From sequence record OR846392.1: a stretch of DNA of 1,089 nucleotides, one strand, 5' to 3'. The position numbers were made by a program, and so were the translations under genes. The DNA is from a phage. The notes beneath the pieces are model-generated. The model did not search any database. It saw only the letters and a list, made by a program, of their open reading frames with translations, and had not been told where the DNA came from. Shown here one piece after another: positions 1 through 1,089 of the stretch (its first letter is position 1; each line of letters starts with the position of its first letter).

Positions 1-1
1 C

Positions 2-838
2 TCTGAAGGTATTGCCCTGACATTTCGTGTTCCTGAAGGAAATATAAAACATCCTTTGATTATCTTATGCCATGGGTTTTGCGGTATCAGGAATGTTCTG
101 CTCCCTTGCTTTGCGAATGCCTTCACAGAAGCAGGATTCGCAACGATTACTTTTGATTATCGAGGATTCGGTGAGAGTGATGGAGAACGAGGGCGTCTGG
201 TTCCTGCAATGCAGACCGAAGATATTATTTCAGTTATCAATTGGGCAGAAAAGCAGGAATGTATTGATAATCAGCGTATTGGGTTATGGGGAACATCGCT
301 GGGAGGGGGGCATGTCTTCAGTGCAGCTGCGCAGGACCAACGCGTAAAATGTATTGTCAGCCAGCTGGCTTTTGCTGACGGTGATGTTCTGGTTACCGGA
401 GAGATGAATGAATCGGAGAGAGCGTCTTTTCTATCCACGCTGAATAAAATGGCAGAGAAGAAGAAAAACACCGGGAAAGAGATGTTTGTGGGGGTTACAC
501 GGGTACTAAGTGATGATGAATCGAAGGTATTCTTCGAGAAAATCAAAGCCCGGCATCCCGAAATGGATATAAAAATACCTTTCCTTACGGTCATGGAAAC
601 GTTGCAATATAAACCGGCAGAGAGTGCAGCCAGCGTCCAGTGCCCAGTTTTGGTTGTTATTGCCGGCCAGGATAGCGTTAATCCACCGGAACAGGGAAGA
701 GCATTATATGATGCTGTTGCTTCTGGTACTAAGGAATTATACGAGGAAGCTGATGCATGCCATTATGATATTTATGAGGGCGCGTTTTTTGAACGTGTAG
801 TAGCTGTGCAGACACAATGGTTTAAACAATATCTTTAA
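2..838 (+). CDS. alpha/beta-fold serine hydrolase (dienelactone-hydrolase/esterase-like), 5'-partial; frame open to the left window edge, stop TAA at 836-838
   Basis: The frame is open from nt 2 with no in-frame stop upstream of the track's TTG at 56; upstream codons read SEGIALTFRVPEGNIKHP and run directly into LIILCHGFCG. HG oxyanion motif (His-Gly) at nt 71-76. Nucleophile elbow G-T-S-L-G at nt 290-304 (Ser codon TCG 296-298) within GLWGTSLGGGHVF. Probable acid residue in VLVVIAGQDSV (Asp codon GAT 671-673). Probable catalytic His in EADACHYDIY (CAT 761-763). Order and spacing HG...GxSxG...D...H over about 230 residues is canonical for this fold. Family placement is by motif recognition only; no search was run. 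Confidence 0.88.
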   Translation, partial: SEGIALTFRVPEGNIKHPLIILCHGFCGIRNVLLPCFANAFTEAGFATITFDYRGFGESDGERGRLVPAMQTEDIISVINWAEKQECIDNQRIGLWGTSLGGGHVFSAAAQDQRVKCIVSQLAFADGDVLVTGEMNESERASFLSTLNKMAEKKKNTGKEMFVGVTRVLSDDESKVFFEKIKARHPEMDIKIPFLTVMETLQYKPAESAASVQCPVLVVIAGQDSVNPPEQGRALYDAVASGTKELYEEADACHYDIYEGAFFERVVAVQTQWFKQYL

Positions 839-859
839 TTGTCAGTATTTATACGTTAA

Positions 860-907
860 AGGTCGTTGAAATTAACTTCCTGTTACGATGAGCCGTTTCA
901 ACGGCCT
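860..907 (+). repeat. Imperfect inverted repeat / potential RNA stem-loop: arms 860-871 (AGGTCGTTGAAA) and 896-907 (TTTCAACGGCCT), 24-nt loop
   Basis: The reverse complement of 896-907 is AGGCCGTTGAAA, which matches 860-871 at 11 of 12 positions. The single mismatch (T863 opposite G904) is a G-U wobble in RNA. Core 8-bp perfect repeat is CGTTGAAA (864-871) / TTTCAACG (896-903). It lies in the spacer between the hydrolase stop and the finO start. Confidence 0.55.
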
Positions 908-924
908 GCAGCGCATATTTTCAC

Positions 925-929
925 GAAGG
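925..929 (+). promoter_or_regulatory. Putative Shine-Dalgarno for finO (GAAGG), 11-nt spacer to ATG; alternative weak GAG at 933-935
   Basis: Purine-rich GAAGG is seen directly upstream of the ATG at 941. Spacing is slightly long for an optimal RBS, so this is a weak call. Confidence 0.4.
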
Positions 930-940
930 TCAGAGTAAGC

Positions 941-1089
941 ATGGCAGAGCAAAAACGACCGGTACTGACACTGAAGCGGAAAACGGAAGGAGAGACGCCT
1001 GTCCGCAGCCGGAAAACCATCATCAATGTCACCACGCCACCAAAATGGAAGGTGAAAAAGCAGAAGCTGGCCGAGAAAGCAGCCCGGGA
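941..1089 (+). CDS. finO: FinO-like fertility inhibition protein (RNA chaperone of FinP/traJ system), N-terminal 49 codons; 3'-partial, continues past window end
   Basis: ATG at 941-943 opens a frame that runs to the window edge: [49 protein letters not shown]. This matches, from memory, the lysine-rich N-terminus of FinO of F-like plasmids almost residue for residue. GC content is about 54% versus about 45% in the upstream gene. A purine-rich GAAGG at 925-929 lies upstream of the ATG. Confidence 0.85.

Follow-up and report, generated by a model that had tools for sequence, protein, structure and literature searches.

The window (the whole 1,089-nucleotide stretch of record OR846392.1 analysed here) carries nearly all of a hydrolase gene, followed by the beginning of finO. 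On the plus strand, frame 2 runs open for 278 codons, beginning at base 2 and ending with the TAA at 836–838. Within positions 1–838 this frame has a single stop and the other two plus-strand frames have 24 and 10; an open run of this kind would arise at random with p ~1.6e-6. The complete gene in the identical record NZ_CP032794.1 measures 861 bases (286 codons), and the window thus lacks only the 8 N-terminal codons. The finO ATG is found at 941, and the opening 49 residues of its product match FinO_N (Pfam, E=9e-32) as well as NCBIfam FinO. A previous sequence-only reading of this DNA had proposed an ORF of at least 278 codons with a missing N-terminus, lying immediately upstream of finO and encoding an HG dipeptide, a GxSxG motif, an Asp and a His as catalytic apparatus. 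The ORF and its placement agree with our results, traX standing upstream in NZ_CP032794.1, and the four motifs are all in frame at the positions it gave. The features of the window are the following:

2–838, plus strand: hydrolase CDS ("orf286" / uilS), codons 9–286 and the TAA at 836–838 (Pfam, NCBIfam, RefSeq label).
71–76, plus strand: CAT GGG, His-Gly dipeptide at the predicted oxyanion-hole position (sequence; invariant H24 G25; model).
290–304, plus strand: GGA ACA TCG CTG GGA, predicted nucleophile elbow G-T-S-L-G, with the Ser codon at 296–298.
671–673, plus strand: GAT, predicted catalytic acid Asp (invariant; topology in the model).
761–763, plus strand: CAT, predicted catalytic His, in an invariant H-Y-D motif (invariant; topology in the model).
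839–940, plus strand: spacer of 102 bases, which is the finO leader in R100-type plasmids and has no counterpart in F.
941–1089, plus strand: first 49 codons of finO (Pfam FinO_N, NCBIfam FinO, annotation).
1–937, unstranded: block of low GC that comprises the hydrolase gene and spacers; R100/pO157-type plasmids have it and F-type plasmids do not.

Besides these features, the minus strand shows a sub-threshold Rfam match to CRISPR-DR37 at 569–600 (21.1 bits, gathering score 40, E=0.62), which falls within the coding region and is almost certainly due to chance.

Plasmid pNZRM3614 (NZ_CP032794.1) matches the window at 100% identity, and pO157 of E. coli O157:H7 Sakai at 99.9%. In NZ_CP032794.1 the hydrolase gene lies 58 bases past traX and 102 bases ahead of finO; besides these two genes, its neighbourhood holds hha, a nuclease and a regulator of the ANR family, and no LuxR gene. 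The R100 orthologue (WP_000704523.1) presents 96% amino-acid identity and the same placement between traX and finO, with the same spacing of 58 and 102 bases. In the F plasmid, on the other hand, finO begins ~54 bases past the traX stop with no hydrolase ORF between them; homology of F to the window begins at 938, 3 bases upstream of the finO ATG, and F-type records align with 938–1089 only. The contrast between F and R100 drawn in the sequence-only reading is therefore real, and the gene, far from being absent from all F-like traX–finO regions, is present in those of the R100 and pO157 types. Taken globally, the ORF is the 286-codon gene of the R100/R6-5 type, a cassette of low GC that such plasmids have between traX and finO. 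As such it is already known, originally as orf286 of R100/R6-5 and at present as uilS in RefSeq.

Although it is the same gene as orf286 of R100/R6-5 in codon number, amino-acid identity and spacing, the copy in the window differs in its carrier, a pO157-type virulence plasmid in which everything ahead of the final ~1.4 kb of traI is lost. On this plasmid type, which is typed as non-mobilizable in PLSDB, R100 homology begins inside traI, ~1.4 kb before its end. The gene order observed (L001 5763–7173) is that last ~1.4 kb of traI, then traX, the hydrolase gene, finO and the rest. Calling the site a conjugation locus, as had been done earlier, is right insofar as traX and finO flank the gene, but the tra region of the pO157-type plasmid is only a remnant. 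Since the tra promoter is lost on pO157, expression of the hydrolase there must rely on another promoter.

The composition of the gene sets it apart from its neighbours, with a GC content of 0.445 (traX 0.58, finO 0.57) and a GC3 of 0.39 (0.65 in both traX and finO). A GC trough extends over window positions 1–940 (L001 7920–8940), with values of 0.37–0.49 in 200-base windows. Such low GC would fit an inserted cassette, not a deletion in F, and a short, weak alignment hints that the insertion may have occurred directly upstream of the finO ATG. The traX–hydrolase spacer (L001 7920–7977) and the traX–finO spacer of F (L077 10711–10764) agree over the ~12 bases that follow the traX stop, and again in an AACACAG located just ahead of the start codon. 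As for the origin of the cassette, the chromosomal homologues that we found all belong to genera which we take to have a higher GC than the cassette, so its donor would not be among them.

The encoded protein belongs to the alpha/beta hydrolases. Pfam Abhydrolase_1 (PF00561) matches with E=6e-34 and 118.2 bits (cutoff 25.8) over profile positions 1–244 of 245. The predicted nucleophile is Ser99 in the window (Ser107 in the full protein), with Asp224 (Asp232) and His254 (His262) completing the triad and the HG dipeptide at 24–25 (32–33). Ser, Asp, His and HG are all invariant in alignments of 24–25 family members (63–92% identity), as is a W-G-T-S-x-G-G motif, and the aligned family has 97 invariant positions overall; the GTSLG of the elbow aligns with GISLGG of structure 7qjm. 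We then generated an AlphaFold2 model of the 278-residue window fragment from a 24-sequence alignment (pLDDT 82.8, pTM 0.85). In this model, HG comes directly past strand 17–23, Ser99 sits between strand 88–98 and helix 100–111, and Asp224 and His254, both in high-pLDDT blocks, follow strands 216–221 and 244–249, respectively. Read as strand topology and not as distances, the model places the catalytic residues at the canonical positions of an alpha/beta hydrolase. The earlier proposal of such an enzyme with an intact Ser-Asp-His apparatus is thus well supported by the profile match, the invariant residues and the predicted topology.

More specific assignments within or outside this fold were also considered. 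The Pfam scan returned 13 families, the weaker hydrolase matches including S33, S15 and S9 peptidase, acetyl-xylan esterase, PETase and dienelactone hydrolase (DLH) models, and the peptidase labels are generic fold matches only. The profile search that had been suggested for the hydrolase families supports the general family but not dienelactone hydrolase proper: the DLH match (PF01738) is weak and partial (25.6 bits, with no stretch passing alone), and the nucleophile is a serine, while dienelactone hydrolases use a cysteine in a Cys-His-Asp triad. A lactonase of the metallo-beta-lactamase fold (AiiA/BlcC type, with its HxHxDH zinc motif) was likewise discarded, with no Lactamase_B among the 13 Pfam families and a fold of the alpha/beta hydrolase type. 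To AidH-type AHL lactonases, which do have the alpha/beta fold, we found no specific similarity of sequence or structure beyond the common fold. The nearest solved structures, at 19–26% identity, are the uncharacterised hydrolase "202" of Chloroflexus sp. MS-G (7qjm), the fungal DcsB thioesterase (7d78), E. coli YcjY (5xb6), GrgF (6lzh) and PA2218 (2hdw), none of them described as an AHL lactonase and all with unrelated or unknown substrates. Monoacylglycerol lipases are also found among the structural neighbours of the model, and neither the top 50–60 fold matches, nor the 46 profile matches, nor the matches by sequence include a solved structure that is described as an AHL lactonase.

A more precise assignment comes from the NCBIfam equivalog NF047920 ("lactonase_UilS"), whose full name is UilS family quorum-quenching N-acyl-homoserine lactonase. 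The window fragment scores 503.7 bits against a cutoff of 400, covering model positions 9–285 of 285. Similar scores are obtained for the R100 orthologue (508.9), a chromosomal homologue of Serratia nevei (516.7) and a Paraburkholderia homologue (484.9), and an Acidocella relative (47% identical) falls under the cutoff with 371 bits. The September 2026 RefSeq annotation of NZ_CP032794.1 names the gene uilS, where the older PLSDB table has "alpha/beta hydrolase" only; a plasmid paper from 2024 labels it "2,6-dihydropseudooxynicotine hydrolase". Compared with the S. nevei homologue, which we used as a proxy for UilS of S. marcescens RM66262, the window protein shows 63% identity and 78% similarity with no gaps.

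The founding member of this family was described in 2024 in Serratia marcescens RM66262 (PMC11633161), and the view of an uncharacterised enzyme with no substrate known, expressed in the sequence-only reading, has consequently to be given up at the level of the family. In S. marcescens, a uilS mutant fails to degrade C10-AHL that is supplied to it and builds up AHLs of its own, complementation brings degradation back, and Serratia uilS expressed in E. coli TOP10 is sufficient for AHL degradation, the activity being cell-associated and absent from supernatants (PMC11633161). The readout in that study was biosensor halos only, with no acidification test, HPLC, mass spectrometry or purified enzyme, and the wording "lactonase" rests on a 28% identity to A. 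baumannii AidA (PMC11633161). Even Serratia UilS itself may thus be an acylase, or inactivate AHLs in another way, instead of being a lactonase. The plasmid protein and Serratia UilS have the same length, a similar NF047920 score (by the S. nevei proxy) and, by the family alignment, the same Ser/Asp/His set, and neither has an evident signal peptide. They differ in context: Serratia uilS is a chromosomal gene with reported synteny to luxR, urea-induced via CpxR and LuxR-dependent (PMC11633161), whereas the plasmid gene is part of a tra–finO region with no LuxR gene nearby.

Genomic context beyond Serratia marcescens is uninformative on function. Chromosomal homologues are stand-alone genes in Citrobacter, Enterobacter, Pantoea, Erwinia, Yersinia, Edwardsiella, Burkholderia and others. 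Across 59 chromosomal loci of at least 9 kb each, no neighbour was common to more than 7 loci, and a Pfam scan of the ten most widely common neighbour clusters returned no LuxR-type protein (SDR, molybdopterin oxidoreductase, GFA, sigma factor and so on). The S. nevei homologue has no LuxR-type gene within 6 kb. Context, then, neither favours nor opposes the AHL assignment. Our search of the literature found no experiment on any plasmid copy of uilS/orf286, and the matches to "orf286" were mitochondrial and phage ORFs only. A lactonase activity of the plasmid copy is what we infer from its family membership.

On this basis, we consider it somewhat more probable than the opposite that the plasmid protein is a cytoplasmic Ser-His-Asp hydrolase which inactivates AHLs. 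The main rival, possible although clearly less probable in our judgement, is an active serine hydrolase that acts natively on something other than an AHL, such as another ester, a thioester, a lactone or a lipid; AHL turnover would then be a side activity or be lacking altogether, and the uilS name would have been propagated too far. The scatter of Pfam matches over peptidase, acetyl-xylan esterase, PETase and DLH models points in this direction, as do the best structural neighbours (DcsB thioesterase, GrgF, YcjY and monoacylglycerol lipases, not lactonases), the missing product chemistry and purified-enzyme kinetics in the UilS paper (PMC11633161), the 59 chromosomal loci with no LuxR or other informative neighbour, and the label 2,6-dihydropseudooxynicotine hydrolase in plasmid papers. 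Against a non-AHL substrate, Serratia uilS suffices for AHL loss in E. coli and its mutant accumulates endogenous AHL (PMC11633161), the IncF protein matches the family model as well as the Serratia homologue does, and the aligned family keeps 97 positions invariant.

The gene is widespread. With the hydrolase part as query, 2,845 PLSDB plasmids match, 2,245 of them over at least 80% of the query; with the whole window as query, matches occur in 3,529 of 5,426 complete E. coli genomes, and in 1,753 at the same coverage. The E. coli matches below 80% coverage, where sampled, were mostly to 938–1089 only, the F-type junction, and so about half of the finO-bearing E. coli genomes would have the hydrolase gene. 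In those 2,245 plasmids and 1,753 genomes the gene is intact in length and reading frame. We calculated dN/dS across divergent IncF lineages (pO157, R100, pEC244_2, pNADC1036IncF and a Klebsiella IncF scaffold). The hydrolase gives 0.11–0.17, close to finO (0.14–0.19) and below traX (0.19–0.29), which indicates purifying selection on the protein and not on RNA alone. A pseudogene reading is rejected in view of the intact gene and this selection.

These data also bear on the possibility that selection acts mainly on the DNA or RNA, with the cassette giving a longer, stabler or better-expressed finO transcript, and thereby stronger fertility inhibition, and with the protein as an incidental product. 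The ORF upstream of finO (orf286 in R6-5) reportedly raises finO mRNA in cis, the paper concerned being that of van Biesen and Frost in Mol Microbiol in 1992, which PMC7690428 cites. The cassette, moreover, takes the place of the finO leader in its entirety, to within 3 bases of the ATG, and both points would suit such a role. However, the dN/dS of 0.11–0.17 and the invariant triad speak for selection on the protein, and the family is found as stand-alone genes on the chromosomes of many genera and on Klebsiella plasmids apart from tra and finO genes. Furthermore, the 102-base leader has no Rfam match, no significant structure (fold z-score −1.41) and no promoter- or terminator-like site, the site counts in the window being near the shuffle mean. 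We regard a role mainly in DNA or RNA as improbable; a cis effect on finO and an enzymatic function are nevertheless compatible, not exclusive, and may coexist.

Least credible of all, and given very little weight here, is a decaying passenger gene with no function on present plasmids, which its place in what is left of the tra region on a plasmid that PLSDB types as non-mobilizable and the many truncated or fused versions in the protein database might suggest, but which is at odds with a gene kept full length and in frame in so many plasmids and genomes, with a low dN/dS and intact catalytic residues.

The database searches returned further forms of the gene. A divergent member of the family (~69% amino-acid and 72.7% nucleotide identity) is carried by large Klebsiella IncFIB/IncHI1B plasmids, with 589 records in PLSDB; this copy (L078 5922–6782; L047 6001–6858) is found next to a Tn3-family transposase, with the ter operon close by and outside any tra region, and scaffold2 of K. 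pneumoniae ATCC 13883 has both this divergent copy and the IncF-type copy. Many database proteins (P0011–P0026, P0086) show 92–94% identity over ~83–87% of the query yet measure 322–450 residues, being joined to unrelated domains such as relaxase, SSB or methylase fragments, a pattern suggestive of repeated rearrangement or of mis-assembly, the break falling within the hydrolase gene. Fragments with 77–100% identity are present on very short contigs of assemblies labelled Clostridiales, Ferruginibacter, Acinetobacter idrijaensis and Bacillus (L002, L061, L069, L070, L074), and are most likely contaminating E. coli plasmid DNA.

Returning to AHL inactivation as the preferred function, the enzyme in question is a soluble alpha/beta serine hydrolase that carries a helical cap; it is predicted as cytoplasmic and has no evident signal peptide. 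Mechanistically, the likeliest reaction, by family membership, would be hydrolysis, and thereby inactivation, of N-acyl-homoserine lactones that have diffused into the cell. Ser107, assisted by His262 and Asp232 and with the His-Gly 32–33 dipeptide contributing to the oxyanion hole, would attack the lactone carbonyl to form an acyl-enzyme intermediate, from which water would release the ring-opened acyl-homoserine. E. coli makes no AHL and senses AHLs through SdiA, so that the plasmid would dampen the signals of neighbours inside its host, and any benefit of the enzyme to such hosts would be indirect. Our results show the identity and place of the gene, its fold, its intact and conserved catalytic residues, its UilS-model membership, its prevalence and the selection on its protein; what the enzyme acts on, how it would open a lactone and whether it affects SdiA or conjugation are inferences.

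The position of the gene as the last one before finO in R100-type plasmids raises a broader proposal, namely that a cytoplasmic AHL-degrading enzyme ties quorum quenching to the control of conjugation by breaking down AHLs from neighbours within the donor and so blinding SdiA. We consider this rather unlikely, and the link between quorum quenching and conjugation is a putative one, although the feature itself is real and already known. BlcC (AttM) of Agrobacterium is a metallo-beta-lactamase-fold enzyme, and Ti transfer is directly activated by AHL via TraR; the plasmid protein, in contrast, has no Lactamase_B match, and IncF transfer is not known to have an AHL input. Their likeness is one of logic only, that of an AHL-degrading enzyme coupled to plasmid-transfer control, with the BlcC lactonase damping AHL-controlled conjugation of the Ti plasmid (PMC7690428). 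In RP4, transfer is reported to be repressed by P. aeruginosa AHL via SdiA (PMC7690428). Ti plasmids with BlcC and RP4 with SdiA were the only precedents that we found for an AHL influence on transfer (PMC7690428). If the proposal is true, the enzyme could shield plasmid transfer or host behaviour from AHL interference, as for RP4 and SdiA (PMC7690428), the pO157 copy could change how enterohaemorrhagic E. coli senses AHLs through SdiA, and the activity would be a widespread, overlooked plasmid trait, carried by about a third of complete E. coli genomes.

As a sequence feature, this is an ordinary, long-catalogued IncF gene, and the point of use lies in the gap between its label and the evidence. 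A name spread from a single Serratia study now stands on a gene found in 1,753 of 5,426 complete E. coli genomes, including on pO157 and the classic R plasmids. If the label is wrong, a very common annotation is misleading. If it is right, plasmid-bearing E. coli would quench the AHLs of other species, and perhaps their own SdiA input, with a bearing on the ecology of the gut and the rumen and on the spread of plasmids.
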